Notes under the pieces: generated by a model
Told to the model about the DNA's origin: nothing
The model's database searches: none
What the model saw: only the letters and a program-made list of their open reading frames with translations
In this document: piece after piece, positions 8,740 through 55,555 of the stretch
Position numbering within the stretch: the first letter of the stretch is position 1
How the letters are laid out: the number at the start of each line of letters is the position of its first letter
IMG/VR virus record: IMGVR_UViG_3300006033_000017
Source of the DNA: a virus
Lineage: Duplodnaviria > Heunggongvirae > Uroviricota > Caudoviricetes
DNA length: 64,000 nt
Strand: one strand, 5' to 3'
Position numbers and translations under genes: made by a program

Positions 8740-9159
8740 CTACAAGGGGCGTTCGTCAACATCTTGCCAAACCGGCAACACTGATGCACCGAAGGGAATT
8801 TGATACAAAGAGGTCAGGACACGGATATCTACAGCCACATTCCGCTCTCTTTTATCGGCATTGCGCAAACACGCTTCGGGATTGTTTTCGAAACAGATCC
8901 ACTCTACCTCAATGTTTGCTTCGCTAAATATCTTCTTGGCGTATTCTTGTGCGCCGGGCACACAAAGCTGCGGATCTGTGATAACACAAACCTGATGTTC
9001 CAAGAATTGGGGAATCAAACACTTAATATCAGGGTGATGTTTACTAACATCATCATACAGAGGAGCACCGCGAGAAGCGGCAAGACCCTTTGCGTAATGA
9101 GTCTTGCCGCTCCCCGGAAGTCCTACGACAAGGAAGACCTTAGCCATCTTTATTTCCAA
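8740..9159 (-). CDS. P-loop nucleotide/polynucleotide kinase-like protein
   Basis: Walker A VVGLPGSGKTHYAKGL near the N-terminus of a small (139 aa) protein. Confidence 0.5.
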   Translation of the reverse strand: MEIKMAKVFLVVGLPGSGKTHYAKGLAASRGAPLYDDVSKHHPDIKCLIPQFLEHQVCVITDPQLCVPGAQEYAKKIFSEANIEVEWICFENNPEACLRNADKRERNVAVDIRVLTSLYQIPFGASVLPVWQDVDERPL

Positions 9160-9973
9160 CCAAATGCTGACATCTTGCGACAGCCACTTCTAGAGGTAGA
9201 TCGTAGACAATGATACCCAAGACTACCTCCTTCAATACTGCCAATGAGTAGTTTTCTGTATGCTTGGCGATTTCAGTCGCTAGTTGAACACAATTGGGAA
9301 TCATACCACTAATGTTGGCTAGTAGATGTGATACATAAAGCAGTCGCACATCATACCCAGGAGCCACCACCTCAAAAAGAGCATCAACTCTTGATGGTCT
9401 ATGCTTGATCCTATCAGGAATAGCATCGAGGTTATTGGTGGTCATGAGATATACGATACCATCTTTAGTTGCTTTAGCACCATCCAACAAAGCTACAATA
9501 TCTTCTTCATTACTTGAGATATACGAGTCTACATCTTCAATGAAGCCAACCATCGGTCGATTAGGTTCCGTTTGACGAATTACTTCGATACCATCTATGA
9601 AGTCGTCGAAGTCTTCGCAGATCAAGAAGAGACCGTCCTGCTCAATGATTTGCTGACCAACGATTTGTGCAATAGCAGTTTTCCCCATACCGGGCTCACC
9701 ATGCAGCAAAATACCCCGTTGGTGTCGTAGCCCCATCTTACTGTAAATAATAGCATTATCCCAGAATGTAGTGATTGCCCGCACGATATCGTGAGATACA
9801 CTATTGGGGAAGAGATACTTGTTTTCTGTCTGCAATTCTCGCACACAAAGTTGTACCTTATCCTCACGAGAATAATACTCGCTGGCGTAGGCTTGTGCGG
9901 GGAGCTTTGCTGTCGCGCTTTCACAAGTCACATACCCCCCTTGGGACGTAACATACCAAACCTGATTACTCAT
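9140..9973 (-). CDS. AAA+ ATPase
   Basis: Walker A GEPGMGKTAIAQ, Walker B LFLICEDFDD, sensor-1 MTTNN. Confidence 0.65.
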   Translation of the reverse strand: MSNQVWYVTSQGGYVTCESATAKLPAQAYASEYYSREDKVQLCVRELQTENKYLFPNSVSHDIVRAITTFWDNAIIYSKMGLRHQRGILLHGEPGMGKTAIAQIVGQQIIEQDGLFLICEDFDDFIDGIEVIRQTEPNRPMVGFIEDVDSYISSNEEDIVALLDGAKATKDGIVYLMTTNNLDAIPDRIKHRPSRVDALFEVVAPGYDVRLLYVSHLLANISGMIPNCVQLATEIAKHTENYSLAVLKEVVLGIIVYDLPLEVAVARCQHLVGNKDG

Positions 9974-10477: not shown

Positions 10478-11498
10478 CTATTGGGTAAAGATTCAGGAAT
10501 CTCGAATTATAGTACCAATACACAAAATTATCTTCATATGTGGTCTTCTGTGACAATTTTCGGAAAGCAATCCGCTGCGCTTTATTCCTAAGTAGTTCTG
10601 CAAGATTTTCCGGCAAATCAACCGTACCGACTTGCATCACAAAACTCGAAGAAGACTTAAACTCGAAACCATGGATCCAATCAGAGTCGGATTCAGAGTC
10701 GGATTCGGAAACCTGCTCCATAAGAAGATTGAACCATTCCTCGGGCTTCTTGGCCTTCCAGTAATAGTCGGTAATCTCAAAGAACATAGCTAGCTTATTG
10801 TTCTCGACTCTTTTGTGATCTGTGTAAACGTACCCCCGAGTATAACCCTGATGGTGACCTTCTCGACTATATACGACATTATGGAAGTAGCCACAGAAGA
10901 TAAAGCGTTTACCAGCCTTTGTCTCATACACACCACCGGGCACGAGTTTACCCATGGCAATCTTGCTATAAGTGCCACGAGTAGTGGCTTGCATCAATCG
11001 CTTATGGAGTTCAGAGCCAGCGCGGATGATCTTCATCTGCGAACCAACTTTAGCCCATAGATACTCACCTTCAAGGATACCGCCGGGTGAAGTGCCGCAC
11101 ATACGCAAAGACTCTAGCAACACATCTTCACGCATGTCAAAGTAGTAACCGTCATCAGTCACGACTTTCCAGGCACGACCGCCTTCTGCGCGGTGTTCTA
11201 GGTTAATGACACGAAGGCCCTTAAAGGGGAGATTGTTGACAGTTACTTCTGTAACATCTCCCACCTTAATATATTCTCTCGTCGCGTAATCGTATACTCG
11301 ACCATCGCCTGCCCAATTTCGACCCGTTTCTAGGGTCTTAGCATTTGTTGCGTCGGAAACAAACGCGGGACGAACATGCCAAGTCATCTGTTCATCTTCG
11401 GGCTGATCGCTAATATCATCAAATCGCCACTTAACATCTTGTGCAGGTTTTGCAATGATGGTAATTTGCTGCGGGATATTTCCTGAGAAGTTCGCCAT
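10380..11498 (-). CDS. hypothetical protein (372 aa) with a SESDSESDSD low-complexity segment
   Basis: long ORF; 12-nt tandem repeat at 10680-10715. Confidence 0.5.
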   Translation of the reverse strand: MANFSGNIPQQITIIAKPAQDVKWRFDDISDQPEDEQMTWHVRPAFVSDATNAKTLETGRNWAGDGRVYDYATREYIKVGDVTEVTVNNLPFKGLRVINLEHRAEGGRAWKVVTDDGYYFDMREDVLLESLRMCGTSPGGILEGEYLWAKVGSQMKIIRAGSELHKRLMQATTRGTYSKIAMGKLVPGGVYETKAGKRFIFCGYFHNVVYSREGHHQGYTRGYVYTDHKRVENNKLAMFFEITDYYWKAKKPEEWFNLLMEQVSESDSESDSDWIHGFEFKSSSSFVMQVGTVDLPENLAELLRNKAQRIAFRKLSQKTTYEDNFVYWYYNSRFLNLYPIDEPIVENPYMAAIWANHTEEKELPDDLARLLP

Positions 11499-11767
11499 TA
11501 CTTCGCTCCTACCAATGCCTTTGCGACAGAATCGAATACCATTTTCTCGATCTTCTTAACCATAGTGCCGTAATAATCGACAACTTCATCATTACGCATA
11601 ATGAAGACATCAAATCGATAACCCGTTCCCGCATAACCATCGAACACCTGTTGAAGCAGCTTTTCATCCACTTCATAGTATTCATTAGTCCGAACAGATT
11701 GCATGTAGATTTTGTCCCCTACTTGGTAATTAGGAAGACGGCATTTCAATTGTCTACTTAGCATCAT
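11498..11767 (-). CDS. hypothetical protein (start at the MMLSRQ Met; upstream part of the ORF is promoter)
   Basis: the first 20 codons of the track ORF contain TTGACA-N17-TATCAT and an AAGGAG RBS before the ATGATG. Confidence 0.45.
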   Translation of the reverse strand: MMLSRQLKCRLPNYQVGDKIYMQSVRTNEYYEVDEKLLQQVFDGYAGTGYRFDVFIMRNDEVVDYYGTMVKKIEKMVFDSVAKALVGAK

Positions 11768-11936: not shown

Positions 11937-12686
11937 ATGCTACCTCGTTACCAGTCACCGAACTACCGCCTAATACACGGTGATTGCCATGACACGCTCA
12001 ATGATTTGAAGGGGTTGGAAGCTCGCCTTGTCCTTACTGACCCCCCATATGGTAAGGTCCTCAAAGATGACTGGGATCAAAGCGGACATATTACCGATCA
12101 ATGGTGTAAGCAAATCAAAGCAGCCTGTACACCTGATGCATCTATATATGTTTGGTGTGGCATGGGGGAGAAATCTCGTTCATTAGTTGAATTTATCCAG
12201 GTGCTCGATAAACATTTTACATTCAAAGATCTAATTACTTGGCAAAAACGACGCGGCATTGGTATGCGTCGAGGATGGCTATATACTCGCGAAGAATTGC
12301 TTTGGTATGTTGTAAACCCTAAAGACTTCGTGTGGAACAAAGAAGCCCAATACTCTGATGAGCCCAACGCATTCAAAAAGGGTATGAGTGGTACGCAAGT
12401 TAATGAGAAGAAGCGTATCACGAATGTTTGGACTGATGTTCCTGAGCAACTAAAGAAGCCTCTTGGTACTCACCCTGCCGATAAACCGATACAAGCACTA
12501 AAACGAGTCATTGCAGCGCACACTGATCCGGGCGATCTCATTCTAGACCCATTCTGTGGGGGCGGCTCTACACTTATTGCTGCTATGCAAATGGGTCGAA
12601 TGGGGTTTGGTATTGAAAAAGATGACCATTGGGCCGAATACACAAAGACTAGGCTAGAGGCAGAATGGGAAAAATCGAATGATTAA
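11937..12686 (+). CDS. DNA amino-methyltransferase (N6-adenine or N4-cytosine, beta class)
   Basis: DPPY catalytic motif near the N-terminus and LILDPFCGGGST (AdoMet motif I) near the C-terminus. Confidence 0.8.
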   Translation: MLPRYQSPNYRLIHGDCHDTLNDLKGLEARLVLTDPPYGKVLKDDWDQSGHITDQWCKQIKAACTPDASIYVWCGMGEKSRSLVEFIQVLDKHFTFKDLITWQKRRGIGMRRGWLYTREELLWYVVNPKDFVWNKEAQYSDEPNAFKKGMSGTQVNEKKRITNVWTDVPEQLKKPLGTHPADKPIQALKRVIAAHTDPGDLILDPFCGGGSTLIAAMQMGRMGFGIEKDDHWAEYTKTRLEAEWEKSND

Positions 12687-13695
12687 TTGCCATACTCACA
12701 CCTTCAGCATTAACAATGTCCCAGATGATTTTCTCCCCCTCAAACTCAGCAAGTTGAGCAGGAACCCTTTACTCCGAAAAGTCATCATCCGACTTCTCCA
12801 AATGAATGACCCCTTAACTGCGCGCGATATCGCTGAACGTTTAGCAACGTTCATAACGCTAATGAATCAAGAATCACAAGCTGATATCTTTGATAATCTT
12901 GCCAGTAACTACCCCAAGGGTACTAAGTTTGTAGTGCTCCCGATGGATTTTGAATTCTCGGGCTATCATCCTCCACATACATCTACTGAAACCCAACTTG
13001 GCATACTGAAGTCGCTTGCCGAAACTCGCCCCATTATCCCATTCTGCCCTGTCGATCCCCGCCGCCCAGACATCATGGGTTTTGTAAAGAAATGGATCGA
13101 AGATAAAGGGTTCGCGGGATTGAAGCTATATCCCGCTCTTGGCTATGAAGTCAATGATTCCCGTCTTGATCCTGTATATGAATATGCCTGCGAGAACAAG
13201 ACACCTATCATTACTCATTGTGGAGGTACCTCAGTTAGAGGAAAACATACCTCAGAAGCTGACGCATACGCCAAGAGCTTACCATATAAATACATTTCGG
13301 TATTAGCAAGGTATAATGAGCTTCATCTATGTTTCGCTCATTACGGTGGAGTAAAAGCTTGGCAAGCAAAGTTGGGTTTAATCGACTCCTGTGAAGATTC
13401 CTGGGTTGATTCAATCTCTAACCTTATGAAACAACACCCTAATGTTTATGCAGATATTGCCTACACTATCTTTACACACCCGTCATTCTATAATTACCTC
13501 AAAGTCTTGATGACAGATGCGACACTAAGCAAAAAGATTCTGTTTGGAACAGACTTCCCACTAGCCAATCTAGAAGAGCGAACGGAGAAACAAGTATCGA
13601 TTGATCTCCGCGCGGTACTTGGCGAGGATTCATGGAATATGATTAGCGAGTTAAATCCAAGACAATTCCTTGGTGTGAAAAACACCTGCGTTTAA
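12679..13695 (+). CDS. metal-dependent amidohydrolase (amidohydrolase-2 / TIM-barrel hydrolase family)
   Basis: N-terminal INCHTHTF (HxH metal ligands) and C-terminal LFGTDFPL (family signature); ATGA overlap with the methyltransferase stop. Confidence 0.5.
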   Translation: MINCHTHTFSINNVPDDFLPLKLSKLSRNPLLRKVIIRLLQMNDPLTARDIAERLATFITLMNQESQADIFDNLASNYPKGTKFVVLPMDFEFSGYHPPHTSTETQLGILKSLAETRPIIPFCPVDPRRPDIMGFVKKWIEDKGFAGLKLYPALGYEVNDSRLDPVYEYACENKTPIITHCGGTSVRGKHTSEADAYAKSLPYKYISVLARYNELHLCFAHYGGVKAWQAKLGLIDSCEDSWVDSISNLMKQHPNVYADIAYTIFTHPSFYNYLKVLMTDATLSKKILFGTDFPLANLEERTEKQVSIDLRAVLGEDSWNMISELNPRQFLGVKNTCV

Positions 13696-15145: not shown

Positions 15146-15501
15146 TGACTAAACTCCCTACATATAAAGTATACACCGTATATCTTCACGACAGCAACAA
15201 CAAGATTACCGCCCATGAAGCGCTAAATCATGAATTCGCAGCAAAGATCATTACGGTAAATGGCACCATTGAAGTATGTAATAATGAATTAGATCGAGGT
15301 CGATATGATCTTGAAGATACCTTCTTCAAGGGTGTCGAAAGTGTTATTAGAGACAAGTTTACATATGAACGTATTGACCTAATTATTCACCATGACAAAG
15401 TTGAGGAATGGTTGGAGTTTGACATTGGGGAGCTTTTCCCACCCCGAAGACGACCGCTACTAACATTAAAGGAAATCGTAGAATGCCAATATATCAGATA
15501 G
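15145..15501 (+). CDS. hypothetical protein (118 aa)
   Basis: ORF. Confidence 0.4.
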   Translation: MTKLPTYKVYTVYLHDSNNKITAHEALNHEFAAKIITVNGTIEVCNNELDRGRYDLEDTFFKGVESVIRDKFTYERIDLIIHHDKVEEWLEFDIGELFPPRRRPLLTLKEIVECQYIR

Positions 15502-15668
15502 AATGCCGTAGCTGCAAACACCAGTGGGAGATCCGGCTCAAGTACAAAGAAGATTTACCACCCTGTCCCGAGTGTAACCACAAAGAGGTCAGAAAGGTAA
15601 TGACACCTCCTGCCCTTTGCTTCAAAGGCTCGGGATGGCACGTTACAGACTATGGAAAGAGTCGATAA
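15483..15668 (+). CDS. FmdB-family zinc-ribbon protein
   Basis: MPIYQIECRSCKHQWE...CPECN...FKGSGWHVTDY matches the FmdB putative regulatory zinc ribbon. Confidence 0.65.
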   Translation: MPIYQIECRSCKHQWEIRLKYKEDLPPCPECNHKEVRKVMTPPALCFKGSGWHVTDYGKSR

Positions 15669-16222
15669 GGAAGTGTAAGTTGGCAAACACCTTGGTTGTG
15701 AACTTGTTTGGCGGGCCGGGCGTTGCAAAATCCACAACGGCTGCGGGCTTGTTCTATCACTTGAAAACACAAGGAATATCCTGTGAACTCATCACAGAGT
15801 ATGCCAAAGATAGAACATGGCTAAAAGACTACGAAACATTAGCATGTCAACCATACGTTACAGCTAAACAGCTATGGCGTATGGAACGGGTCGTGGGTCA
15901 GGTAGATGTAATGATCACCGACTCGCCGTTGTTGTTTGGCATCATCTATGCGGGCAAATGGGGGTCTGAAAACTTCGATGCCATAGTCAATGAGTGGTTT
16001 GATAGATTCAACAACCTTAACTTCCTGCTCACACGGGATTTGGATTACCATCCCTATAGACAAGCCGGTAGAACTCAAACCGTAGATGAAGCGATTGTTG
16101 TAGATGGGAAGATAGAAGCACTCCTTAATGATTTCTCGATCTCACATGAACGCATCAAATGTGGTAAAGGCTCTACTGAGAAGATCCTGCAAACTGTACT
16201 AGAACGACTAAGGACAGCCTAA
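15635..16222 (+). CDS. P-loop kinase (uridine/nicotinamide-riboside kinase-like, AAA_28-like)
   Basis: Walker A LFGGPGVAKSTTA; Walker B-like VMITDSPLLF; Arg-rich lid LTRDLDYHPYRQAGR. Confidence 0.45.
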   Translation: MARYRLWKESIRKCKLANTLVVNLFGGPGVAKSTTAAGLFYHLKTQGISCELITEYAKDRTWLKDYETLACQPYVTAKQLWRMERVVGQVDVMITDSPLLFGIIYAGKWGSENFDAIVNEWFDRFNNLNFLLTRDLDYHPYRQAGRTQTVDEAIVVDGKIEALLNDFSISHERIKCGKGSTEKILQTVLERLRTA

Positions 16223-16893
16223 TGTGCCCTGTATGTGGTGAGACGAAAAACATATTCCCCCTTGATACTCCAGCGTGGTACGAATGCCGCGACTGCAATA
16301 GCACTTTTGGTTCTCCTGCAAGGATGCATTGCAATCAAACCTGCATCGCTTGTGGTAGTGATGATGTATCCACAGTGGATGGGAAAAACTATTGTCGCTC
16401 TTGTTCAAGTATCTACAATCTCCCCTCTGCCCCTATAGAGTTCCTTGACAATCCATTCCGTAAACTACTAAATGATATAGAGAATTGGCGGAACGAAGGC
16501 TGTTCAGCTAAAGAGATTCGCAAAAAGGTAGAAGAAACAAAGTGGCGCACAGGTAAAAGGTTCTTTGACGAAAAGACCATTAATGCCGCCATTAAAGTAA
16601 TTGACAACTATAGGCTGAGAACCGCTAAAGCGGCAAAGAGTAAAGCCAAAGACCCCGATAAACAAGAAATTGTAAAAGCCAAAGACCCCGATAAACAAGA
16701 AATTGTAAAAGCCAAAGAAAAAGGGGCCGAGCTAAGACTTGTCGCGAAGGCAATTGAAGTAGCAGTAATCGAAGAAGATGAGCTAGAACAGATTACAAGA
16801 GAGAACGATATCCGAGAGGCGCTAATTGAACTAGAAGAGATGTTAAAGCCATCTATTATACAGCGTGCCAGGAATATCTTGAGAAGAAGATAG
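16222..16893 (+). CDS. zinc-ribbon protein with tandem AKDPDKQEIVK repeats and an acidic coiled-coil tail
   Basis: N-terminal CPVCG...CRDC...CIACG...CRSC; 33-bp perfect tandem duplication at 16642..16707. Confidence 0.5.
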   Translation: MCPVCGETKNIFPLDTPAWYECRDCNSTFGSPARMHCNQTCIACGSDDVSTVDGKNYCRSCSSIYNLPSAPIEFLDNPFRKLLNDIENWRNEGCSAKEIRKKVEETKWRTGKRFFDEKTINAAIKVIDNYRLRTAKAAKSKAKDPDKQEIVKAKDPDKQEIVKAKEKGAELRLVAKAIEVAVIEEDELEQITRENDIREALIELEEMLKPSIIQRARNILRRR

Positions 16894-21182: not shown

Positions 21183-22022
21183 TTAGCGGCGCGAGCTACT
21201 AGACGAACTAGAACTGGATCGACTACTAGAGCTACTAAAGCTACTAGAGCTACCGAAACTTCCTGAAGAAGATCGCCCACTAGAGCTAAAGCCACTCGAT
21301 CCACCGAAACTACCACTACTGCGGCTAGGACTTGAGCCGCCAAAGCTACCACTACTCCGACTAGAGCTTGAGCCACTCCAACTACTACTTGGACGACTAG
21401 AGCTTGAGCCAAAAGACCCCTTGGAACTCGCTGCCGAACTTCCGCTATTGAAAGAGCCTCTCGACTTACTAAAAGATCCACCTGAAGTGGGCCTTGAGCC
21501 TGAGAAGCTACTACCAGTTCGTGCCTCGGGTACAGAAGGAACAGTCGTACTCTTTGATCCAAAAGAACCACTAGATGTACTAGGCGTACCGAAACTGCCC
21601 TTTGCCGGTGGGCGAGTGGTCCTTACTTCAGCAGCAGTAGCAGTACGAACAGCAGGCCGACTAGTTACCGCAACATATGGCTTACTATATCCCGGTGGGT
21701 TAGCATGATAGTAATACGAGTAATGCGACGTAGTATAGTAACGACCACGATAAGCACCACCGTAAGGATTAGCCATCCACCAAGAATAGGTCGGGAAGTA
21801 ATCATCATCGATAATCACAACCGGGGCCGGAGCAGCCGCCATGTATTCAGGTCCGACAGGTTGAACCGCCATTCCATTATGGCGACTGTGGATATCCCCC
21901 GCCACACCAACAACAATCGTACCAACAATTGCCAGCATCGCAATGACAACCAGCATCTCAATCAGGGTAAAGCCCTTCTTACGCATCTTCTGTTTCCTTT
22001 TCTTTGATTTCACCAAGTACAT
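21183..22022 (-). CDS. type IV prepilin-like protein with a Tyr-rich region and a long Ser/Gly/Arg-rich repetitive tail
   Basis: KKGFTLIEMLVVIAMLAIVGTIVVG matches the class III prepilin cleavage/methylation signal (G|FTLIE); then (SGSFGSSS)n low-complexity repeats. Confidence 0.6.
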   Translation of the reverse strand: MYLVKSKKRKQKMRKKGFTLIEMLVVIAMLAIVGTIVVGVAGDIHSRHNGMAVQPVGPEYMAAAPAPVVIIDDDYFPTYSWWMANPYGGAYRGRYYTTSHYSYYYHANPPGYSKPYVAVTSRPAVRTATAAEVRTTRPPAKGSFGTPSTSSGSFGSKSTTVPSVPEARTGSSFSGSRPTSGGSFSKSRGSFNSGSSAASSKGSFGSSSSRPSSSWSGSSSSRSSGSFGGSSPSRSSGSFGGSSGFSSSGRSSSGSFGSSSSFSSSSSRSSSSSSSSSRR

Positions 22023-24605: not shown

Positions 24606-25091
24606 TCAATCGTAGAGCCTAGATAGGCTTTGATCACAGGAGGAACAATGCTCTCGACGCACAAGAGCATCGATGTTGTATTCCTCTAAGCGCAAATACT
24701 CATAACCTATCTTGGTCGAGTAATAGATACGCTTAATACCACAATTCCATAGGACCCGAATACAATTCTTACAAGGCATAGCAATAATCGGATTACCTGC
24801 CTTTGAAATACCCGATACATATATCTTGGTACGACTATCGAGTTGCGCATTCAGCCCCGGCAAAACACCTAGAATTGCATCAATTTCAGCATGAAGAATC
24901 CCTAGAAGGGAAGATTTTCGATGGGTATTGAAGATATCTGGCGGGATATTACCGCAAGATCGATTATACCCTGTCGATATAATTTGGCTTTTTTGAACAA
25001 GAATTGCACCCATTCTATAGCCGCAAGCCCCCTTGCTTTCCGCAAGTTTTCTCGCCATATCTAGAAAATGTTCATGCGTATTCATATTCAC
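24606..25091 (-). CDS. dCMP/cytidine deaminase
   Basis: zinc-binding HAEIDAIL ... PCKNCIRVL (H-x-E and PCxxC motifs). Confidence 0.7.
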   Translation of the reverse strand: MNMNTHEHFLDMARKLAESKGACGYRMGAILVQKSQIISTGYNRSCGNIPPDIFNTHRKSSLLGILHAEIDAILGVLPGLNAQLDSRTKIYVSGISKAGNPIIAMPCKNCIRVLWNCGIKRIYYSTKIGYEYLRLEEYNIDALVRREHCSSCDQSLSRLYD

Positions 25092-27488: not shown

Positions 27489-27707
27489 TTACCACTCATC
27501 ACGGTGCTCCTGTAATACCTTGATTGCTAACTTGCATCTCTGAATTGCTTCGGTAATAACCTCATCGGTCGCTTCTTCACGATACTTGTGTAGGACTGAG
27601 GCAACACAACCCTTTAACTCGGCTTCACCTATCTTGTAGAGGGAACGAGTTCCCATCGGTGCTAATTCTTGCATCATATAATACGCAAGCTTCATTGATG
27701 TCATCAT
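27489..27707 (-). CDS. hypothetical protein (72 aa)
   Basis: ORF overlapping the Thg1-like gene stop. Confidence 0.35.
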   Translation of the reverse strand: MMTSMKLAYYMMQELAPMGTRSLYKIGEAELKGCVASVLHKYREEATDEVITEAIQRCKLAIKVLQEHRDEW

Positions 27708-28471
27708 ACTTCTGCCTTCAGAATTGGCTCCGCGCCACGGAATACAACATCTTCCCTATTCGCGATGCGAGTCATAATAGGAATTGATAGTTGATGATAT
27801 TCTGAGCGTTGATATGTTTCACCAGTATCAGCTTTAGTGTGAAAAACTGGTACCTTCCTGAAATACGCACCACGCTTCAAGTGATCCGCATAATCATTCC
27901 AGTTAATGCCCTTCTGAAAGATCATCTCCTGAAGAGCATCGCATTTCTTGCCCTGCAACGCAGAGTGACTATAGAGACTCTGCGCAACCATCAAGATACT
28001 GTTGCGAACCGCATCGACTTCACGCCAGATCAAGGCGTTAGTGGCTTCATATTCAGTTGGGACGCTCCATACACGGCAATCAAACAAAGGGTTCAAATGC
28101 GCTTTCTTGGGAAGATAGGTCGGCAGTTGCTTGTTAAAGAAAACCGACGCCATACTTGCTAACAAAGAAGTCATCTTGGCAACACGACCATCAAAGAAGA
28201 TCTTGCGCTCAAAATCATCCTGTTGCCAAATTAGCGTAATTTCATCAGATTGTGTGTAAGAAATAACAGCATGAGTTTCTTTCACAAGATACTTAGCCGT
28301 TTCATGCATCAATTGCCGCAAATCATCATCAAATGGGCGCGCAAGGCCGCGACAAAATGAGTGAAATGCCTTACCATCTAGACGTGCCATGGCGGGCGCG
28401 AGCGGCATGAGTCGCGCTTGCGGGCCACAGTACAGGTTCTCATAGTATTTCATTCTATCCGACAGATCCAT
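27704..28471 (-). CDS. Thg1-like protein (tRNA-His guanylyltransferase family; 3'-5' nucleotidyltransferase)
   Basis: MARLDGKAFHSF ... ISYTQSDEITLIW aligns to the Thg1 catalytic core RLDGRNFHRF / AYGQSDEYSF; colinear similarity over the whole length. Confidence 0.8.
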   Translation of the reverse strand: MDLSDRMKYYENLYCGPQARLMPLAPAMARLDGKAFHSFCRGLARPFDDDLRQLMHETAKYLVKETHAVISYTQSDEITLIWQQDDFERKIFFDGRVAKMTSLLASMASVFFNKQLPTYLPKKAHLNPLFDCRVWSVPTEYEATNALIWREVDAVRNSILMVAQSLYSHSALQGKKCDALQEMIFQKGINWNDYADHLKRGAYFRKVPVFHTKADTGETYQRSEYHQLSIPIMTRIANREDVVFRGAEPILKAEV

Positions 28472-34645: not shown

Positions 34646-35845
34646 CTAAGCATTTTGCAATGTCTCGAATATCCGCGAATCTATAGGTTTGAAACCGGCA
34701 CCGTAAGGTCCGGTAAGGAATCGATTCAAAATATTCTTACTCGCGTTTGTATCCGCATTGTCTCCATGACCACAACTGAGACACAAGAACACCTCTCCGT
34801 TTCGATTCCTCTTATCGACATGACCACATAGCGGACAGGTGATACTGGTATTATAACACGAAACGGTTCTGAAGGAAACACGGTTTTCTTCACACCCCAT
34901 TTGTACCCGGTCTAACCAATATCGCCATACCCAACTGCCGATAACTCGACGCATACTTTTAGAGAGGCGTCGTCTCTCCTTTGCCTTATGGTTCAGATTA
35001 GATAACTTCTCCACAACCACAAGATCAATACTTTTATTAGTTACGATCTGCCTCGTAACTTCGTCTATTCGTTGTTTCAAGGCCCTACGAGCTTTCTTTT
35101 GGCCTTTCGATCCCTGATTACAACGATTGACTCTGTTCACACAATCTTTAATATCTCTACCTAATTGCTCTCCAGTAGAGAATGAAGCCAAAGCATTAAT
35201 CCCAGAGTCTATACCGATAGCATTGAGCCCCGTTTTCTTTGGACCAGTTTCAATCTCGAAACAGAACTGAACACTATCTCTGGTGATAATGTAGCTATTC
35301 AGTCTTGTTCCCAATTGATTCCATTTGTTGAAATGCTTGTGTTTTTTAATCGGAAGATCCATCACAATCTTATTGCCAATTGAAGCTAGATGCAACCAAG
35401 AATCAAATTCTGATGCTGCCTTTGAAGCCACTAACTTAGCAATGTTACAATTGGCGCAAATTCTATCTCCTTTGTGTGTCGGCTTAACGGGCTTGATTGT
35501 TTCTGCTTTTTGTCTTAATTGATTGGCCTTAACTTCGTATTTAGCTCTTTCTGCTTTGGCTAATAATCGTTTTTTCTCATTTTTGGCTTTCTCTTGAGAA
35601 GAATTAATCAGATCAATAGCTTCTCTTGCACAGACCTTTCTCATTCTATGAGAAAACCAAGAATCAGGGAGGTTGATTATATCTTTGAGCAAGTCTGCTT
35701 TTGTCGGGCATTTATCTAGTGCCCAGAAAGAATCAATGAAGATATTGCAGAGTCTTCCGTATTCGATCAACACAATGCTAAGCTCCTCTCTCTTTTTTAA
35801 GGTCGAGAATTTAAGGGTACATTGTGTTGACCGAATGATTTTCAC
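34646..35845 (-). CDS. tnpB: TnpB (IS605 OrfB-family RuvC-like, putative RNA-guided nuclease)
   Basis: RuvC-I GIDSGINALA, RuvC-II VVVEKLSN, zinc finger CPLCGH...CLSCGH, RuvC-III DNADTNASKNI; N-terminus MKIIRSTQCTLKF is typical. Confidence 0.8.
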   Translation of the reverse strand: MKIIRSTQCTLKFSTLKKREELSIVLIEYGRLCNIFIDSFWALDKCPTKADLLKDIINLPDSWFSHRMRKVCAREAIDLINSSQEKAKNEKKRLLAKAERAKYEVKANQLRQKAETIKPVKPTHKGDRICANCNIAKLVASKAASEFDSWLHLASIGNKIVMDLPIKKHKHFNKWNQLGTRLNSYIITRDSVQFCFEIETGPKKTGLNAIGIDSGINALASFSTGEQLGRDIKDCVNRVNRCNQGSKGQKKARRALKQRIDEVTRQIVTNKSIDLVVVEKLSNLNHKAKERRRLSKSMRRVIGSWVWRYWLDRVQMGCEENRVSFRTVSCYNTSITCPLCGHVDKRNRNGEVFLCLSCGHGDNADTNASKNILNRFLTGPYGAGFKPIDSRIFETLQNA

Positions 35846-38753: not shown

Positions 38754-39350
38754 TTGAGAGTAATGATTGACCTCGCTGCCCTTACAACGATAAACCATCA
38801 GACTAACCCCATTATAGCACGACCGCAGCCGTTTGTTAAATCGCTTGACAACCCAATCACCCCATGGTATAATGATGATATGAAACCCATAAATCCAGTA
38901 TATGCGGCTCGTTTCGATGAAGCCAAATACTTACTAGAAAAACATCACGACCTATTTAGCGCTATTGTCTCTATTTCTGATAGAGAAGATGAGTTAATGC
39001 CACAAGCATTAACCCAAGACACCTATTGTCTGCGTCTAATCTTCACTGATACTGATGGTCGTCAACCTGACATAGCTATGTCTCTAGAACAAGCACAAGC
39101 TCTATATGATGCACTACCGACTATCACACAAGGAACAGGCACAATCCTGGTTCATTGCTCCGCAGGCTTGTGTCGCTCACCTGCGATTGCATATGTGATT
39201 ATGGCGTACCAATTCGGCCCCGGCAATGAAGCTCAAGCATACGCAGAGCTTTCTAAATTGAATCCTGTGATGCTACCTAACCAATGGGTGCTTAGTCAGT
39301 GCGAGAAGGTGATGCCGGGTTTTAAGTTACTACCAATTCTTAACAAATAA
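38754..39350 (+). CDS. Cys-based protein phosphatase (tyrosine/dual-specificity type)
   Basis: HCSAGLCRS = CX5R(S/T) P-loop. Confidence 0.6.
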   Translation: MRVMIDLAALTTINHQTNPIIARPQPFVKSLDNPITPWYNDDMKPINPVYAARFDEAKYLLEKHHDLFSAIVSISDREDELMPQALTQDTYCLRLIFTDTDGRQPDIAMSLEQAQALYDALPTITQGTGTILVHCSAGLCRSPAIAYVIMAYQFGPGNEAQAYAELSKLNPVMLPNQWVLSQCEKVMPGFKLLPILNK

Positions 39351-45728: not shown

Positions 45729-46493
45729 TTACACCTCAACGTGCAATAGCTCAGATATAGCAAGGCCGCGCCACTTGGTCTTACCAGTTTCGCCGCTGCA
45801 AACCCTATGCATATCTGCAAACCACCAATGCGCAGGCTCCAATACCATCAACAATGTATTGAGCCAACCACGACTTGGTTGTTCCTTAGGATCCAAGGGT
45901 GTAATACCGGGAATCTCGAATCTAGCAGGAGGCTGATGGGATAGAACAATGTCAACCCCACCCACTGCTTCGACATTAGCAATGGCTTTATTGATTTGCT
46001 CCTCGCTAATAGTCTCCTCTTGGAACCATGTATGAACTGCCTTCTTGGGGAAATACCTCATGGCTTCCTGGAACTTCTTGTTCCTATGTTGCTTGTCCCA
46101 AGGCACAGAATCCCCACCGCCCATAAAGAGTATTTTCGCGCCGTCAATTTCAAGAACAGTACCACGAGGCACATACGTAACAATGCCACCCTCGCTTGTG
46201 TCGCAGGGGCAAGGTGTGGTACCATGATAGATACCGTCTTTGATCATTTGGTATTGATCTTCATGATTACCATCTATCCACAGAAAGTTGACGTGCTCGG
46301 GCACGGTGACCTCTGGGGGCCACACAGGAACCTTATGCTGCCCGGAGGTGAGGTGACGGGGCCAGTAGCCCATTTCGCCCAGGCAGACCAACGTAGCGCC
46401 GTTAGGAGCCGCCTGGGCCACCGTGGTAACGGCGTTCTGGGCCGCAGGCCAGTCCGCGTGGATGTCGCCAATGAGGTATAAAGACATGAGCAT
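45729..46493 (-). CDS. calcineurin-like metallophosphoesterase
   Basis: LIGDIHAD (motif I) and WIDGNHED (GNHE motif III). Confidence 0.7.
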   Translation of the reverse strand: MLMSLYLIGDIHADWPAAQNAVTTVAQAAPNGATLVCLGEMGYWPRHLTSGQHKVPVWPPEVTVPEHVNFLWIDGNHEDQYQMIKDGIYHGTTPCPCDTSEGGIVTYVPRGTVLEIDGAKILFMGGGDSVPWDKQHRNKKFQEAMRYFPKKAVHTWFQEETISEEQINKAIANVEAVGGVDIVLSHQPPARFEIPGITPLDPKEQPSRGWLNTLLMVLEPAHWWFADMHRVCSGETGKTKWRGLAISELLHVEV

Positions 46494-50538: not shown

Positions 50539-51222
50539 CTAAATCGCCCAGGAGGGGGCTTGTTCCCCATCCATGACCACAGCGAGCTTACACTCATACA
50601 GGGTAATCTTAGGCTCATCCTTCTTAGGCGCACCGCGAGACACGAGATGATCCTTAACAACAGTCCAACCACCCTCGGGGTGATTAAGCCACTTAGATAC
50701 ATAGGCCATGACACTCATGTCGCTATGAATACCAGTGTATACGGCTACTTCTTCCTGAAGACCAGCAAGAGTAATGCCAGGATTTGCGGCAAGAATACCG
50801 AAAACCATATCCTGCTTAGTGCCCTCATTGAAGCCCGAACCAAAAGCAATAGGATAACCAGCAAAGACCAAGCGCTTCTTGTGCTTTTCGGCTTCCTTTT
50901 CCTTAGGAACGTCTACACTGATTACTTCAATGGTGGCATCCTCAGTAACCGGCAGTTCTTCCTTAACAGGTCGAGCAGGTAGCCCCTGAGCAATACGCCG
51001 CGCTTCAATGGCGCGGGTTACATGCTCAATATGAGCAATACTACCCTCACAGGCGTAGCTACAGTAACCATCAATGAGAACGCCAAAATGATTACCCTTG
51101 GGCTTCTCAAGACAGAAACGACAGAATCCACCCGATTGCCAATTTGTAGTCTTCGCTTCAATAGCAGAAACGGGCACCCATTCGATGATCTTACCAGTTG
51201 GCTCATGAATAAAGGTCGGCAT
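50539..51222 (-). CDS. hypothetical protein (~227 aa from MPTFIHEP)
   Basis: the track ORF's first 17 codons are the promoter TTGACA...TATAAT read from a TTG; Cys/His-rich segment. Confidence 0.45.
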   Translation of the reverse strand: MPTFIHEPTGKIIEWVPVSAIEAKTTNWQSGGFCRFCLEKPKGNHFGVLIDGYCSYACEGSIAHIEHVTRAIEARRIAQGLPARPVKEELPVTEDATIEVISVDVPKEKEAEKHKKRLVFAGYPIAFGSGFNEGTKQDMVFGILAANPGITLAGLQEEVAVYTGIHSDMSVMAYVSKWLNHPEGGWTVVKDHLVSRGAPKKDEPKITLYECKLAVVMDGEQAPSWAI

Positions 51223-51244: not shown

Positions 51245-51273
51245 ATTATAGCACGTCGTGAGCCGCTTGTCAA
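51245..51273 (-). promoter_or_regulatory. sigma70-like promoter TTGACA-N17-TgcTATAAT + AAGGGTAG
   Basis: minus-strand cgagTTGACAagcggctcacgacgtgcTATAATaagggtag. Confidence 0.55.
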
Positions 51274-51689
51274 CTCGTAATTGGCCCACCACGCATGGGT
51301 TTATTGAATAAATCAAGTAGCCATGAGCATTTATAGGTATTGTTAGCTTGGCAAATGACTCGTTCCGCAAAATACCAAGACCATAGCTCTAGGTCGTAAT
51401 ATGCCGTTCCGCCATTAGGATGAAGGCAAATACCGATATCTGGCTGCGTAAATATCTTGCATTTGATACAATTTACGGTATCATCTTCATTCACTTTTAA
51501 CTCAACATCCACACAACAGTACCGTTCTTGAAGTAGCAGGCCACCATCTTTAATGCCCTGATTGATTTCGAATAGAATTTTGCAATTCGACCCAAAGTGA
51601 GCGTTACCATTAAGAAAGGTAGCCACTTCAGCGGCGATAACTCTTGCCTTCTTTAATCTTGCTTCATAATCTACCATATCAGTCACCAT
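51270..51689 (-). CDS. hypothetical Cys-rich protein (139 aa)
   Basis: ORF. Confidence 0.4.
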   Translation of the reverse strand: MVTDMVDYEARLKKARVIAAEVATFLNGNAHFGSNCKILFEINQGIKDGGLLLQERYCCVDVELKVNEDDTVNCIKCKIFTQPDIGICLHPNGGTAYYDLELWSWYFAERVICQANNTYKCSWLLDLFNKPMRGGPITS

Positions 51690-52248
51690 ATAGATTGTTA
51701 TCTAAAATATAGTGCATAAGCTCAGGACATTCATGATACATCAAGGCTGCCTTGAGTCTATCATTCTCTAGGGGTGGAATCTCAGTCTTAAACTGTTCTC
51801 TAATCCATGTACTATGCTCACCAATATCGGGCACGGAGAAGATATTCACGGAAGCACACAATCGCTCCGCACGAAACCAGTGTTGTAGATTAAACAATGT
51901 ATCAGAACCAATAATTAGAACTAGATTATCCCTACTAAGATTCTCATGGATGTGATAGTGTTGCACCAAGTCATAGGTGTTCTGAATATCAAAATCCCTC
52001 TCCACACTATTAACAAAAGCCCGAGCATGACAACATTTGTGTAAGAGATTAGTCATATGAAATCGGTGTTCATATGACACATTAGAGGTTTTCAATGGTT
52101 GCCTATTTGTTGGCGTAATACCAATCGAAAAATCACTGGAACGCTTACCATAGCCATTAAATGCAGCAGCAGCAGTATGTAATGCTCTAAGATGACCAAG
52201 ATGTGGTGGGTCAAACATTCCGCCATAAAGCCCAAAACTAACCATCAC
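51679..52248 (-). CDS. nicotinate/nicotinamide mononucleotide adenylyltransferase-like (NadD/NMNAT family)
   Basis: GGMFDPPHLGH (GxFxPxHxGH) and C-terminal HSTWIRE (SxTxxR) motifs. Confidence 0.6.
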   Translation of the reverse strand: MMVSFGLYGGMFDPPHLGHLRALHTAAAAFNGYGKRSSDFSIGITPTNRQPLKTSNVSYEHRFHMTNLLHKCCHARAFVNSVERDFDIQNTYDLVQHYHIHENLSRDNLVLIIGSDTLFNLQHWFRAERLCASVNIFSVPDIGEHSTWIREQFKTEIPPLENDRLKAALMYHECPELMHYILDNNLYGD

Positions 52249-52310
52249 TAAACCCTTTCAAATATAGCAAGGCCGGGGACTTGCCCCGGCCCTACTACTC
52301 GCTATGAAGA

Positions 52311-53213
52311 CTACTGCGTAGGTGCCGGCATCTGAATCATAGGTGTTGCACCACCTACGACCATTGGTTGCTTGCCGTCCCACTTCTCAATAGCAGCCTT
52401 CTGATTCTGAATGCGCTGCCAGTCCACCATGATAGAAGTCAGGCTATTAGTCAACAGAGCGTTAGCCTTCGCCTGACCCTCAGCTTTAACGCGCGCAGAT
52501 TCCGCCTCACCGCGAGCCGACTCAATTTGCTGAGTTGCTACAGCCTTAGTCTCACGGATCTTATTCTCTGCGGCAACAGCCTTGTTGGTCGCGGTAATTG
52601 CGGCAACAATTGACTCCGAAACCTGAGAATCTAGGCGCAGGTCAGAAACAAAACTCACCATGTTAACCTGGAAGCCATCCGCACCTAGACGAGTACTTAG
52701 ATCGTCAGTTACCTGCTTCAGTAGCTCGGCTTTACCTTCACCATAGATCTTTACAATCGGCATCTTCGATGCATGACGACTCAGAGAATCGCGAACCTGA
52801 GAACGCAGATAAACATTCGAGATACCAGTGATATCCTGACGGAACTTCTTGAGGATCGACGGCACCTTGGCTGAATCCAAAGTAAAGGCCAGGGAAACAT
52901 CAACACGGACCAATGCACCCTCAACAGAGTTGAAAGCCATACTCTCATCAACGGGCGCACCTTCATGGGCACTTGCGGTCCAGTTGATCGTCTTCATAAA
53001 GGTCGGGTAACGATAAAGAATGGTAGTCAAAGGATTGTAGAATACGCGACCAGTAACAACTGGCATGTTATTCACACCCTTATTCCCGCCATACATATTG
53101 ACCTTAACGCCAACCCACCCCGGCTCAATCACCGAGGAGCAGAAAAGCAACACACCCAGAGGCATCAACAGAATCACCACTAGTGCGGCGATGATACCAA
53201 TTCGCTTTGTCAT
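52311..53213 (-). CDS. SPFH/band-7 (stomatin/prohibitin/HflKC-like) membrane protein
   Basis: N-terminal TM helix; SPFH-like core; Ala/Glu/Gln-rich coiled coil (AESARVKAEGQAKA). Confidence 0.65.
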   Translation of the reverse strand: MTKRIGIIAALVVILLMPLGVLLFCSSVIEPGWVGVKVNMYGGNKGVNNMPVVTGRVFYNPLTTILYRYPTFMKTINWTASAHEGAPVDESMAFNSVEGALVRVDVSLAFTLDSAKVPSILKKFRQDITGISNVYLRSQVRDSLSRHASKMPIVKIYGEGKAELLKQVTDDLSTRLGADGFQVNMVSFVSDLRLDSQVSESIVAAITATNKAVAAENKIRETKAVATQQIESARGEAESARVKAEGQAKANALLTNSLTSIMVDWQRIQNQKAAIEKWDGKQPMVVGGATPMIQMPAPTQ

Positions 53214-53426
53214 TTACTTCTCACCTTCTTGTTTATTGACATTCCTTAGGAAGAAATGCCAAATCTCTGTAACTATGACTGAAACTGTTAAAATGACTAG
53301 CCCAATACCTTTGATTACACCAAGGTCCGACGGCTCGCTCAACATCTCTGCGGCTTTAGTCCACACAAAGCACAACGAGAACAGGGCGGTCAAAAGGATG
53401 ATACTTAGACCGAATATCCTTTTCAT
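53214..53426 (-). CDS. small 2-TM membrane protein adjacent to the SPFH gene (NfeD-like partner?)
   Basis: two hydrophobic helices; directly follows the SPFH gene. Confidence 0.4.
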   Translation of the reverse strand: MKRIFGLSIILLTALFSLCFVWTKAAEMLSEPSDLGVIKGIGLVILTVSVIVTEIWHFFLRNVNKQEGEK

Positions 53427-53952: not shown

Positions 53953-54231
53953 CTAATTCATTTCATCTCGCAAGGTAGAAGCACCAAATTCCCGCAACGC
54001 GGCTTCGAATTCTTCTGCATCTTCTTGCGTAATCGCACCAAACTTTACACGGTCCTTAACCGACGCTGCCATATCAAGGATTTCATCAGGATCACTATAG
54101 ACCTTTGGTACCGGCAAATTGCACTTGGGGCACACAAAGATGATAGCAATATCGGGACCATCATTCTGAACAACTTGCGAAGCGTGTTCAGCATACAATG
54201 GCTCACCACAGGAACAATTGATTTCAGACAT
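53953..54231 (-). CDS. zinc-ribbon protein (92 aa)
   Basis: CSCGE...CPKCN; start overlaps the ATPase stop (TGATG). Confidence 0.45.
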   Translation of the reverse strand: MSEINCSCGEPLYAEHASQVVQNDGPDIAIIFVCPKCNLPVPKVYSDPDEILDMAASVKDRVKFGAITQEDAEEFEAALREFGASTLRDEMN

Positions 54232-55103
54232 TATCTCGTACCTCTAAGTTGATCGATCTTATCCCGCGCGGCATCGACGGTTTTCTTGGCTTCTTCCATT
54301 AGACTAATAGCATCTGCCATGTAATTATAGAAAGCACAGCGTGCCTCTTTAGCATATCCTGCATGGATGTCAATGATGTTAAAAGCCAGATTGCCAGCCA
54401 ACAAAGGCAGAACTGAGTGCGTAGATACAATCACTTGACATTGTTCTGCCAATGTCGGAATGAAGTTCTGCCAGAACTTCGTTTGTAGCGGCACCTCAAA
54501 CCAATTATCAGGCTCATCCAATAGTACCGTAACTTTACCAGTAGAGTTGAGACTCTTGATGTAGTCAACCTGATCTTGAATTTTGTGTTGACCAACAGGC
54601 TCTTTATACTTGGCTAGCATATCTTCCCAAACGATGGGTTTCTCAATAGCAGCATTCAACCTCGCGAGTCGATATAGGTTGATTTGACCCTCACTCATTT
54701 GATTGGCGTTAACCTGATCCACCATACCGGAAACGCCATCAAGAGAGCCATTGTCGCTATCCATGAAGTAGCCAACATGCTTGATGTTGATTGTTCCATC
54801 ATAGAAGAAGGTAGGCGTACCGTCCCAATCAATTTCAGCAATACAACCATGAGATGCCTTTCGCTCAAGCATTTCGGCGACTGTATTACCACGATGAGGA
54901 GTCAAAGAGCCCCAGCCTGCCTCATTCACAGAAACATCAATGAAGCATCGAGCAGCCATCATCTTTAGGAGGGTCGTTTTACCACAACCATTAGGTCCCC
55001 ATAGGATATTAGGCATTGAAGTAGAGAACTCAATCACCCGACCATCTTTCAGATCAGGTAGCTCGGCGGCGTATCCAGAAATTGTCTTAACAGATCGAAT
55101 CAT
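54231..55103 (-). CDS. compact ABC-type ATPase (AAA_21/RecF-like)
   Basis: Walker A GPNGCGKTTLL, signature-like MSEGQ, Walker B VLLDEPD, H-loop STHS. Confidence 0.7.
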   Translation of the reverse strand: MIRSVKTISGYAAELPDLKDGRVIEFSTSMPNILWGPNGCGKTTLLKMMAARCFIDVSVNEAGWGSLTPHRGNTVAEMLERKASHGCIAEIDWDGTPTFFYDGTINIKHVGYFMDSDNGSLDGVSGMVDQVNANQMSEGQINLYRLARLNAAIEKPIVWEDMLAKYKEPVGQHKIQDQVDYIKSLNSTGKVTVLLDEPDNWFEVPLQTKFWQNFIPTLAEQCQVIVSTHSVLPLLAGNLAFNIIDIHAGYAKEARCAFYNYMADAISLMEEAKKTVDAARDKIDQLRGTR

Positions 55104-55555
55104 TAGTCAATTCCTAGCGCATCAACAGCATGAAACATGGAAGCAATAGAGTCGTGTTCTATACCAGCTATCTGTAAGGCTCGGCTAACACCTAATCGGT
55201 AGCTTGCCATTAAGCTCCCGACGACAGGAGCCCCGGCACCATTAACCGCTCGCAAGAACTTGTAATGCTCTAGATGTGCATTTGCTAAGTCGGCAATCAA
55301 ATCTTCGGACAACTCTTTTGATGCTCCGTTCTCAGCAATGCTTAATGCCTCTTTGAGTGAACAATCATCTTTATGCCCCGTATGATGTCGCCAGCAGTCC
55401 CAGCCCTTTGATGCAAGCAACTTGTATTGCTCAGGCATAGCGCCCTGGCAAACGGGGCAGCAAGGAATGTTCGTGCCAAAATCTTCTTCGGGCGACCAAA
55501 CGTCGCCACTACCAGACCATTCTAGTTCATGTAGAATAGCAGCTAAAGGTGTCAT
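55103..55555 (-). CDS. hypothetical Cys/His-rich protein (150 aa) translationally coupled to the ATPase (possible degenerate HNH/zinc-finger)
   Basis: CCPVCQG ... WDCWRHHTGHKDDC; ATGA overlap. Confidence 0.4.
   Translation of the reverse strand: MTPLAAILHELEWSGSGDVWSPEEDFGTNIPCCPVCQGAMPEQYKLLASKGWDCWRHHTGHKDDCSLKEALSIAENGASKELSEDLIADLANAHLEHYKFLRAVNGAGAPVVGSLMASYRLGVSRALQIAGIEHDSIASMFHAVDALGID

Follow-up and report, generated by a model that had tools for sequence, protein, structure and literature searches.

Does a large uncultured phage carry its own route for making nicotinamide adenine dinucleotide (NAD), or a set of enzymes that merely resemble one? This question is raised by a stretch of 64,000 nucleotides from the IMG/VR virus record IMGVR_UViG_3300006033_000017 (Caudoviricetes), hereafter the window, which holds a gene similar to bacterial nadD, a CoaD-like gene and a gene for a small P-loop kinase. 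Many bacterial defences kill infections through NAD destruction. A preliminary description of this DNA had combined the three genes into one possible pathway of NAD salvage, running from nicotinamide riboside (NR) through nicotinamide mononucleotide (NMN) to NAD. The analysis reported here confirms that the first of them is a genuine gene of the NadD family (nicotinate/nicotinamide-mononucleotide adenylyltransferase); the other two are best read as separate auxiliary genes that do not form one pathway with it.

A divergent member of the NadD family

The gene in question is the following:

51679 to 52245, minus strand: NadD-like nucleotidyltransferase gene, 188 amino acids from the ATG at 52245

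A GTG start at 52248 (giving the open reading frame, ORF, 51679–52248) would add a single codon. The ATG is favoured by the ribosome-binding site AAAGGG lying 7 nucleotides upstream, and the public gene call likewise gives 188 amino acids. The motifs by which a NadD/NMNAT-type enzyme had been recognized on this strand are indeed present, GGMFDPPHLGH at residues 9–19 and HSTWIR at residues 145–150. They belong to a full series of family motifs: GGxFDPPHxGH, P46...K53, E60-H-R62..M65, E83, T91, G114xD116...W124 and T147..R150, with YI..NxLY at the C-terminus. Bacterial NadD (TIGR00482/PRK00071; Bacillus subtilis 1KAM/1KAQ, Bacillus anthracis 3E27, Escherichia coli 1K4K) has the same fold and the same motif order (GGxFDPxHxGH, PxxxPxK, EHRxxM, GxD...W, (S)STxIR, C-terminal YI..N.LY). 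A comparison with 137 relatives gave 23 alignable columns with a conservation of 70% or more; the phage protein retains 22 of them, including G9, G10, F12, P14, P15, H16, G18, H19, P46, P51, R62, M65, E83, T91, G114, D116, W124 and, at the C-terminus, Y180, I181, L186 and Y187. The columns of G9, G10, F12, P14, H16 and H19, in the (H/T)xGH motif, are 98–100% conserved in this set. Of the SST.IR motif, T147 and R150 are likewise present; the stretch EHSTWIR (144–150), which lies at the N-terminal end of a predicted helix, keeps S146 as well, the placement of this short motif by MAFFT having varied between alignments.

The family assignment is upheld by sequence and fold matches, all of them to NadD and at a level well above chance. 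The protein scores above the cut-offs of the broad models, with 42.3 bits (cut-off 21) for Pfam CTP_transf_like (PF01467) and 35.4 bits (cut-off 27.7) for the superfamily model TIGR00125. Among its NCBIfam matches, NadD models occupy the top seven places and 12 of 14 overall (best TIGR00482, 5.6e-17), and every PDB sequence match is a NadD (12 of 12; best B. subtilis 1KAM, 1.7e-8). A HMMER scan of 1.84 billion representative proteins returned 1090 matches at E <= 1e-3; all of the top 40 relatives match NadD models of NCBIfam. Profile alignment with E. coli NadD by hhalign covers the full length at 99.9% probability (E 2e-35). An AlphaFold2 (AF2) model (predicted local distance difference test, pLDDT, 87.9; predicted template modelling score, pTM, 0.84) has the Rossmann-like core and the small C-terminal helical subdomain that define the NadD fold, and its top 50 Foldseek matches in the PDB are all NadD/NMNAT (best E 1e-8, TM 0.70–0.74).

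The protein differs from bacterial NadD in its distance, being 20–24% identical to the NadDs of solved structure and no more than 35% identical to any relative (closest non-self match 35%, E 8e-14, among the 1.84 billion representatives), and in its setting, as the gene is phage-borne and stands outside the nadD-rsfS operon. The gene of its nearest relative, P0003, adjoins rsfS in the canonical bacterial nadD operon, and the phage gene is therefore seen as derived from a cellular nadD that was captured long ago or has evolved fast.

Evidence that the gene is maintained comes from a related copy on an 868-nucleotide contig from a sister sample (L154), which covers 141 codons at the 3′ end of the NadD-like gene, together with the entire ORF downstream of it, at 80% DNA identity and with no gaps. 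This second ORF is placed as follows:

51270 to 51677, minus strand: cysteine-rich orphan ORF of 135 amino acids, with its ATG 1 nucleotide past the stop codon of the NadD-like gene

Between the two copies, the ratio of nonsynonymous to synonymous substitution rates (dN/dS) is 0.067 for the NadD-like gene (Nei-Gojobori, 140 codons; proportions of synonymous and nonsynonymous differences, pS 0.70 and pN 0.13). The downstream ORF shows 86% amino-acid identity, the identical 1-nucleotide spacing and a dN/dS of 0.13. Because of these two ratios, both reading frames are considered to be under strong purifying selection.

A probable role at one step of NAD synthesis

Taken at the level of sequence, it seems fairly probable that the gene encodes a functional, highly divergent NadD-family enzyme which adenylates nicotinic acid mononucleotide (NaMN) and/or NMN and supplements a host step. 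As a stand-alone auxiliary, it would add capacity at the step from NaMN or NMN to nicotinic acid adenine dinucleotide (NaAD) or NAD, and NAD synthesis in the infected cell might thereby be sustained or restored. The remaining steps (nicotinamidase, phosphoribosyltransferase and NAD synthetase) would be left to the host, and the enzyme would be expressed as a two-gene unit with the conserved cysteine-rich protein of 135 amino acids. Its substrates, its effect on NAD pools and its benefit against NAD-depleting defences are what we infer; a counter to such defences is possible by analogy.

Several results weigh against this reading. The TIGR00482 score, 62.4 bits, lies below the equivalog cut-off of 112.45, and the other NadD models also score far below theirs. 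The residues of the base-binding pockets, assigned by mapping the phage protein onto E. coli NadD, are altered in many places. In the E. coli enzyme, H45 and W117 stack on the pyridine ring, Y118 forms a hydrogen bond with the carboxyl or amide group, and the double mutation Y84V/Y118D moves the preference towards NMN (PMC8035330), while Arg133/134 touches adenine or ATP (PMC8745210); the residue roles were taken from these two studies. The correspondences are:

E. coli NadD W117, phage W124: kept
E. coli NadD T85, phage T91: kept
E. coli NadD R46, phage K53: conservative change
E. coli NadD H45, phage L52: replaced, pyridine side
E. coli NadD Y84, phage N90: replaced, pyridine side
E. coli NadD Y118, phage F125: replaced, pyridine side
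E. coli NadD R133/R134, phage P140/D141: replaced, adenine side; Arg in 96% of the 137 relatives
E. coli NadD residues 137–175 (about 40 residues): deleted in the phage protein

The mapping indicates an intact catalytic core with both base-binding pockets remodelled. Since pocket residues are replaced, the preference for NaMN or NMN, and strictly even for ATP, is not readable from family membership. In addition, the related copy on L154 has HGTWIR, with Gly in place of the Ser of HSTWIR.

The genetic surroundings weigh on the same side. The searches for partner NAD genes covered the window plus a 10-kb flank, that is, 74 kb of a contig of 157,149 bp; the window is the reverse complement of approximately the first 64 kb of the metagenomic contig ENA ERZ27247451 k141_1195142, and the same phage is present in a Logan assembly. 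Pfam annotation of all called genes in these 74 kb gave no NAPRTase/Nampt, isochorismatase, NAD synthase, PnuC, Nudix, PRPS or NadR, and profile searches seeded from viral NAD clusters found no NAD partner genes there either. Finally, the product of a NaMN-specific enzyme would still need the host NadE. A lone NadD cannot rebuild NAD from ADP-ribose and nicotinamide without the host PncA, PncB and NadE, or a source of NMN.

The same searches found no gene for Nampt, PncA, PncB, NadE or Nudix, so that the earlier failure to see a Nampt-like gene now extends across the 74 kb. For PnuC, the window contains no ORF of suitable size with multiple transmembrane segments, and phmmer with a phage PnuC was empty in the window and its flanks; NadR has no match in the window. 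The NadD gene of this phage therefore stands alone, without partner NAD genes in the 74 kb.

Other viral NadD genes have a different setting. In IMG/VR, 53 viral contigs carry NadD-like genes, the best viral relative being 32% identical to the protein described here. Their neighbours include NAPRTase/PncB (19 of the 53 loci), a PncA-like isochorismatase (15), an NrtR-type Nudix (11), another Nudix (6) and NADAR (5). These neighbours tie the viral NadD family to NAD salvage, and the NAPRTase/PncA/NadD neighbourhoods are a viral salvage cluster of the Preiss-Handler type.

It was also noticed that Thg1-like genes lie within 6 kb of NadD in six of the 53 viral contigs and RtcB in four, which hints that genes for tRNA repair and for NAD recurrently co-occur in large phages.

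The CoaD-like gene and the P-loop kinase

The other two genes of the supposed pathway are these:

1360 to 1854, minus strand: CoaD-like (phosphopantetheine adenylyltransferase-like) gene, 164 amino acids from the called start
15680 to 16222, plus strand: AAA_28-family small P-loop kinase gene, 180 amino acids as called; start most likely at 15680, not 15635

The preliminary description had pointed to a second (H/T)xGH enzyme with CoaD signatures at 1360–1881, and this assignment holds. The protein scores 91.1 bits against TIGR01510, just below the cut-off of 103.3, carries T/HxGH, the RGxRxxxDYEYE...N block (RGVRNSEDYEYERKIADFN) and SSTKIR, and has phosphopantetheine adenylyltransferases (PPAT) as 34 of its 36 PDB matches. 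It shares with CoaD/PPAT (TIGR01510) the T/HxGH motif, the RGxRxxxD(F/Y)EYE...N block and SST.(I/V)R, and differs from that family in scoring under the cut-off and in being phage-borne. It also matches phrog_29208 and has relatives of about 30% identity in 61 phage records, those of Lak, Caulobacter, Brevundimonas and Listeria phages among them. CoaD serves coenzyme A metabolism and is not involved in NAD synthesis.

About 2 kb from the CoaD-like gene, at 10589–11664 of the flank sequence L005 (approximately 0.2–1.3 kb beyond window position 1), there is a metallophosphoesterase gene followed by a gene of the T4 gp30.3 family. This family, PF08010, is weakly related to NADAR, and a viral NADAR profile matches the flank gene at E 0.0017; the two genes may be ADP-ribose-related. 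A protein of 854 amino acids without a family match comes after them.

The kinase is a more ambiguous case. It had been compared with uridine and nicotinamide-riboside kinases; a likeness to the ribosylnicotinamide-kinase (RNK) domain of NadR was found, whereas a likeness to uridine kinases or Nrk1 was not. The protein scores 36 bits against Pfam AAA_28 (cut-off 27), the family of the NadR RNK domain, and its AF2 model has a pLDDT of 96.6. By hhalign, its profile aligns with the whole RNK domain of E. coli NadR (residues 232–392) at 84% (E 8e-6), against 6.5% and the P-loop only for E. coli Tmk. A fold search in BFVD likewise places phage NadR-type proteins above thymidylate kinases (TMPKs), a protein of 351 amino acids reaching TMq 0.79 against about 0.65 for the TMPKs; among the named entries there, phage NadR proteins are the closest in structure. 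On the other side, a fold search of the PDB leaves thymidylate kinases and NadR tied at E ~1e-5, hhalign with a T5-like NadR gives only 2.6%, and the PHROG label of the family is thymidylate kinase. JGI calls some relatives 'nicotinamide riboside kinase', and the contig of the closest relative carries a bona fide Tmk as well, which indicates that the kinase is not simply a Tmk. Overall, the kinase resembles the NadR RNK domain somewhat more than it does thymidylate kinases, and its fold may be called either NadR-RNK-like or TMPK-like.

The kinase family is large on viral contigs (396 word-index matches; at least 478 IMG/VR contigs). In a survey of three long contigs and 80 IMG/VR loci, relatives adjoined ThyX, ribonucleotide reductase (RNR) and Nudix genes, DnaB, Toprim, RNase H and PolIII, flap endonuclease (FEN), QueE, a phosphoribosyltransferase (PRTase) and DNA methyltransferases. 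Guilt by association was tried and set aside, the neighbours being heterogeneous and mostly replication or nucleotide genes. The residues of the NR site of Bas30_86 (K163, R167, K168, E230 and D275) were also mapped on an orthologue with the same numbering. This mapping is not usable because the K/R patch is N-terminal to the start of the kinase and E230 has no conserved counterpart even in E. coli NadR.

The surroundings of the kinase show some further features. It is preceded by an ORF of 61 amino acids encoding an FmdB-like zinc ribbon (15483–15668) and directly followed by a gene for a zinc-ribbon-rich protein (16222–16893, plus strand) with an exact tandem duplication of KAKDPDKQEIV (two copies). 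In one clade of contigs bearing the kinase (L073, L081, L084, L089 and L095), a (H/T)xGH nucleotidyltransferase of about 175–180 amino acids lies approximately 6 kb downstream on the opposite strand; it scores 33–42 bits, equally with the CoaD-like query and with the NadD profile.

The proposal that the three genes constitute one NAD pathway is not supported. They lie 14–50 kb apart, on different strands or in different transcription units: the CoaD-like gene is 50 kb from the NadD-like gene, the kinase gene is 36 kb from it on the opposite strand, and CoaD takes no part in making NAD. Support is equally lacking for an NAD context of the kinase, as its relatives are found among replication and nucleotide genes and proximity to NadD is rare: of the 53 viral NadD loci, one has a kinase of this type (A2) within 6 kb, and of the 80 kinase loci, one has a true NadD within 8 kb.

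Alternative explanations

A salvage route of the NARP3 kind split between distant genes, in which the kinase would convert NR to NMN and the NadD-like enzyme NMN to NAD with the help of a host importer, is quite unlikely. The assignment to AAA_28 argues for it, as do the hhalign and BFVD preferences for NadR over Tmk, the JGI label given to some relatives, and the true Tmk on the contig of the closest relative. The changes of Y84 to N and Y118 to F fall at the very positions whose mutation moves E. coli NadD towards NMN, and both genes occur within 6–8 kb of each other on two jumbo-phage contigs (L016 and L075). Against these points stand the 36 kb and the opposite strands that separate the two genes here, their rare proximity elsewhere (1/53 and 1/80 loci), the company of the kinase relatives (ThyX/RNR/Nudix, DnaB/PolIII/RNase H, FEN, QueE and DNA methyltransferases), the PHROG label, the tied PDB search, the 2.6% obtained with the T5-like NadR and the lack of a PnuC in the searches described above; in NARP3 itself, neither gene alone rescued infection.

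The altered pockets allow another explanation, that NadD chemistry has been turned to a different mononucleotide or nucleoside triphosphate (NTP), or depends on the protein of 135 amino acids, the product being a non-canonical dinucleotide or a modification of protein or RNA. This is unlikely. It would account for a kept core with replaced pocket residues, a lost adenine-stacking Arg and a deleted 137–175 segment, for the isolation of the sequence (at most 35% identity to any of 1.84 billion representatives), for the tightly coupled and conserved orphan ORF, and for the failure to find PncA, PncB and Nudix, the usual viral NadD neighbours. Yet W124, T91, K53 and the entire ATP-phosphate machinery are retained, the 137–175 segment is missing in other short NadD-family proteins too, and the engineered NTP switches in E. 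coli NadD took specific bulky substitutions that are not seen here (PMC8035330); nor is there positive evidence for any alternative substrate. A further reading, in which the remodelled enzyme and its partner of 135 amino acids would make a product other than bulk NaAD, either NAD directly from NMN, in a salvage by this enzyme alone or split between it and the kinase and independent of a phage transporter, or a non-canonical dinucleotide, is very doubtful. The dinucleotide could be one that NADase defences are unable to cleave, or an RNA 5′ cap, and either option would, if true, be a new phage strategy around NAD. Lastly, the idea of a captured bacterial nadD that is decaying or has lost its function can hardly be right. 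The score under the curated family cut-off and the loss of an Arg conserved in 96% of relatives are in its favour, and they are opposed by a dN/dS of 0.067 at saturated synonymous divergence, by the intact frame and conserved motifs in two diverged phages, and by the confident AF2 model. A divergent NadD-family enzyme that assists the host at a single NAD step is thus the explanation we prefer.

Relation to known phage NAD systems

The preliminary description had considered the route from NR to NMN to NAD as distinct from the known Nampt/Nmnat pair. The route as such is not new, having been published for phages as NARP3 (PMC13464706), and phage NAD reconstitution is established as three pathways. 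NARP1 comprises Adps and Namat, NARP2 Nampt and Nmnat, and NARP3 a PnuC-like transporter and a bifunctional NadR-like RNK/NMNAT, as in Bas30_86/87, neither of which rescued infection by itself (PMC13464706, 2026). A 2024 survey of jumbo phages had also reported nadD, nadR, nadM, pnuC, pncB and nadE in these viruses, including a lone nadD in a phage of 735 kb (PMC11662467). NadR-like genes were found here in 770 phage records.

The similarity to NARP3 in the net route from NR through NMN to NAD would hold only if the kinase, which is distantly related to the RNK domain, were an NR kinase. A gene of the SPFH family precedes the NAD gene both in a T5-like phage and here, the two SPFH proteins being 23% identical. 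The differences are that no PnuC was found, that the adenylyltransferase is of the NadD and not the NadR type, that the kinase is unfused and 36 kb away, and that it has relatives in a replication and nucleotide context. NARP2 (e.g., NadV/NatV of KVP40) and NARP1 resemble the present case in placing a phage enzyme at the last or second-to-last step of NAD synthesis and in possibly countering NAD-depleting defences; in contrast to them, the 74 kb yielded no Nampt, NAPRTase-family, PRPS-like or Nudix gene, and the Nmnat enzymes of NARP2 are of the NadM or NadR type, often fused to Nudix, whereas this one is NadD-type. The viral nadD genes of NAD clusters (PMC11662467; IMG/VR L012–L064) are also virus-encoded members of the NadD family with a presumed boost to NAD synthesis, but the NAPRTase, PncA-like, Nudix and NADAR neighbours of those loci were not found here in the 74 kb. 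Unlike the 'NAD-jumbo phages' of the same survey (PMC11662467), which exceed 200 kb, the present contig is about 157 kb.

What is new is therefore a very divergent member of an already known class, phage-encoded NadD, both phage nadD and the NR–NMN–NAD route having been described before. As it stands, this is an extension at the level of annotation and not a new mechanism. Its contribution is a stand-alone and very divergent enzyme of the NadD type from a phage of at least about 157 kb without known relatives. If the enzyme is active, a single host-complementing NAD step may be worth carrying for a phage, and its altered pocket could inform NaMN/NMN or NTP specificity in the NadD family, which is both a drug target and an engineering scaffold.

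Local organisation of the NadD-like locus

Further elements around the gene are the following:

51245 to 51273, minus strand: match to the sigma-70 consensus, TTGACA-17-TATAAT with extended TG, 12/12 matches, overlying the 3′ end of the 135-amino-acid ORF
52271 to 52291, minus strand: GC-rich hairpin GGCCGGGG-caagt-CCCCGGCC, then T-rich TTGCTATATTT, read directly from the sequence
52311 to 53213, minus strand: SPFH/Band-7 membrane protein gene, directly upstream of the NadD-like gene

Given the gap of a single nucleotide after the NadD-like stop codon, the downstream ORF is probably co-transcribed and translationally coupled with the NadD-like gene, and the two probably make up a two-gene unit. 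The encoded protein has no match in Pfam, PHROG, PADLOC or PDB and a single homologue among 5.8 billion proteins. The hairpin separates the stop codon of the SPFH gene from the start of the NadD-like gene. It may act as a terminator or attenuator and so delimit the unit on its 5′ side; it was not listed by the terminator scan. The promoter match is the sole perfect 12/12 site in 7 kb and, by its agreement with the consensus alone, is a candidate that probably starts the next transcription unit (50539–51222).

The SPFH protein is well supported (Pfam Band_7, E 1.8e-18; phrog_200, E 1.5e-60), and its gene is preceded by one for a protein of 70 amino acids with two transmembrane segments (region 52311–53426, minus strand). 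The T5-like phage PSa2 has the gene order SPFH-nadR-pnuC (NARP3; L065, 360–3310), and this synteny was considered as a functional link and rejected. The SPFH proteins of the two phages are only 23% identical, no NAD gene adjoins SPFH in two phages whose SPFH proteins are closer relatives, and SPFH lies within 6 kb in none of the 53 viral NadD loci. As the arrangement is not recurrent in other phages or in viral NadD loci, the adjacency is probably a coincidence.

Phage context and other genes

At 44% GC and without tRNA genes, the window holds about 130 short ORFs of 45 amino acids or more (greedy non-overlapping set). Most of them are arranged in long co-directional runs, and most lack family matches. 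Its phage origin is indicated by PHROG matches (Thg1-like, 3e-76; SPFH 'lipoprotein', 1.5e-60; a head-protein family, 9e-24; phrog_2319, 3.6e-47) and, in the flank, by the T4 gp30.3-family gene. A search for close relatives among 50,697 phage records gave nothing useful by megablast (5 kb) or blastn (7.5 kb), nor did tblastn of the NadD-like protein and of the 854-amino-acid flank protein against the same records. PADLOC had no match for the NadD-like, CoaD-like, kinase or SPFH proteins.

Several other genes deserve mention. A TnpB/Cas12f1-like gene (34646–35845, minus strand; Pfam Cas12f1-like_TNB, E 3e-12, OrfB_IS605 weak) has a small HTH_17/MerR gene just upstream (about 35.9–36.1 kb), and no TnpA was seen with it. 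Its use for host inference was uninformative, the best genome match being 38% identical and from an Anaerolineae metagenome-assembled genome. A Thg1-like tRNA-His guanylyltransferase is encoded at 27704–28471 on the minus strand (phrog_4717, E 3e-76). At 54231–55103 (minus strand) there is a gene for an ABC/AAA_21-type ATPase of 290 amino acids, which PADLOC matches weakly, over short stretches, to AriA and PtuA (best E 1.5e-10). The gene is flanked by two small ORFs (55103–55555 and 53953–54231) and may be a defence or anti-defence module carried by the phage.

At 11937–13695 on the plus strand, a gene for an N6/N4 DNA methyltransferase and one of the Amidohydro_2 family (E 2e-21) overlap, a dCMP deaminase is found elsewhere in the window (listed region 24606–25091, minus strand), and the flank holds a nucleoside 2-deoxyribosyltransferase-like gene (L005, 16429–17205). 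Taken together, these genes may point to nucleotide or DNA modification chemistry. In a similar way, a small AAA_33/polynucleotide-kinase-like P-loop protein that adjoins an AAA+ ATPase (8740–9147 and 9140–9973, both minus strand), together with weakly matching DSPc-phosphatase and metallophosphatase genes elsewhere (38754–39350, plus strand; 45729–46493, minus strand), may serve RNA-repair or end-healing functions. Finally, a protein of 267–279 amino acids (21183–22022, minus strand) bears the prokaryotic N-terminal methylation (type IV pilin-like) motif PF07963, a feature uncommon among phages that may hint at a Gram-negative host.

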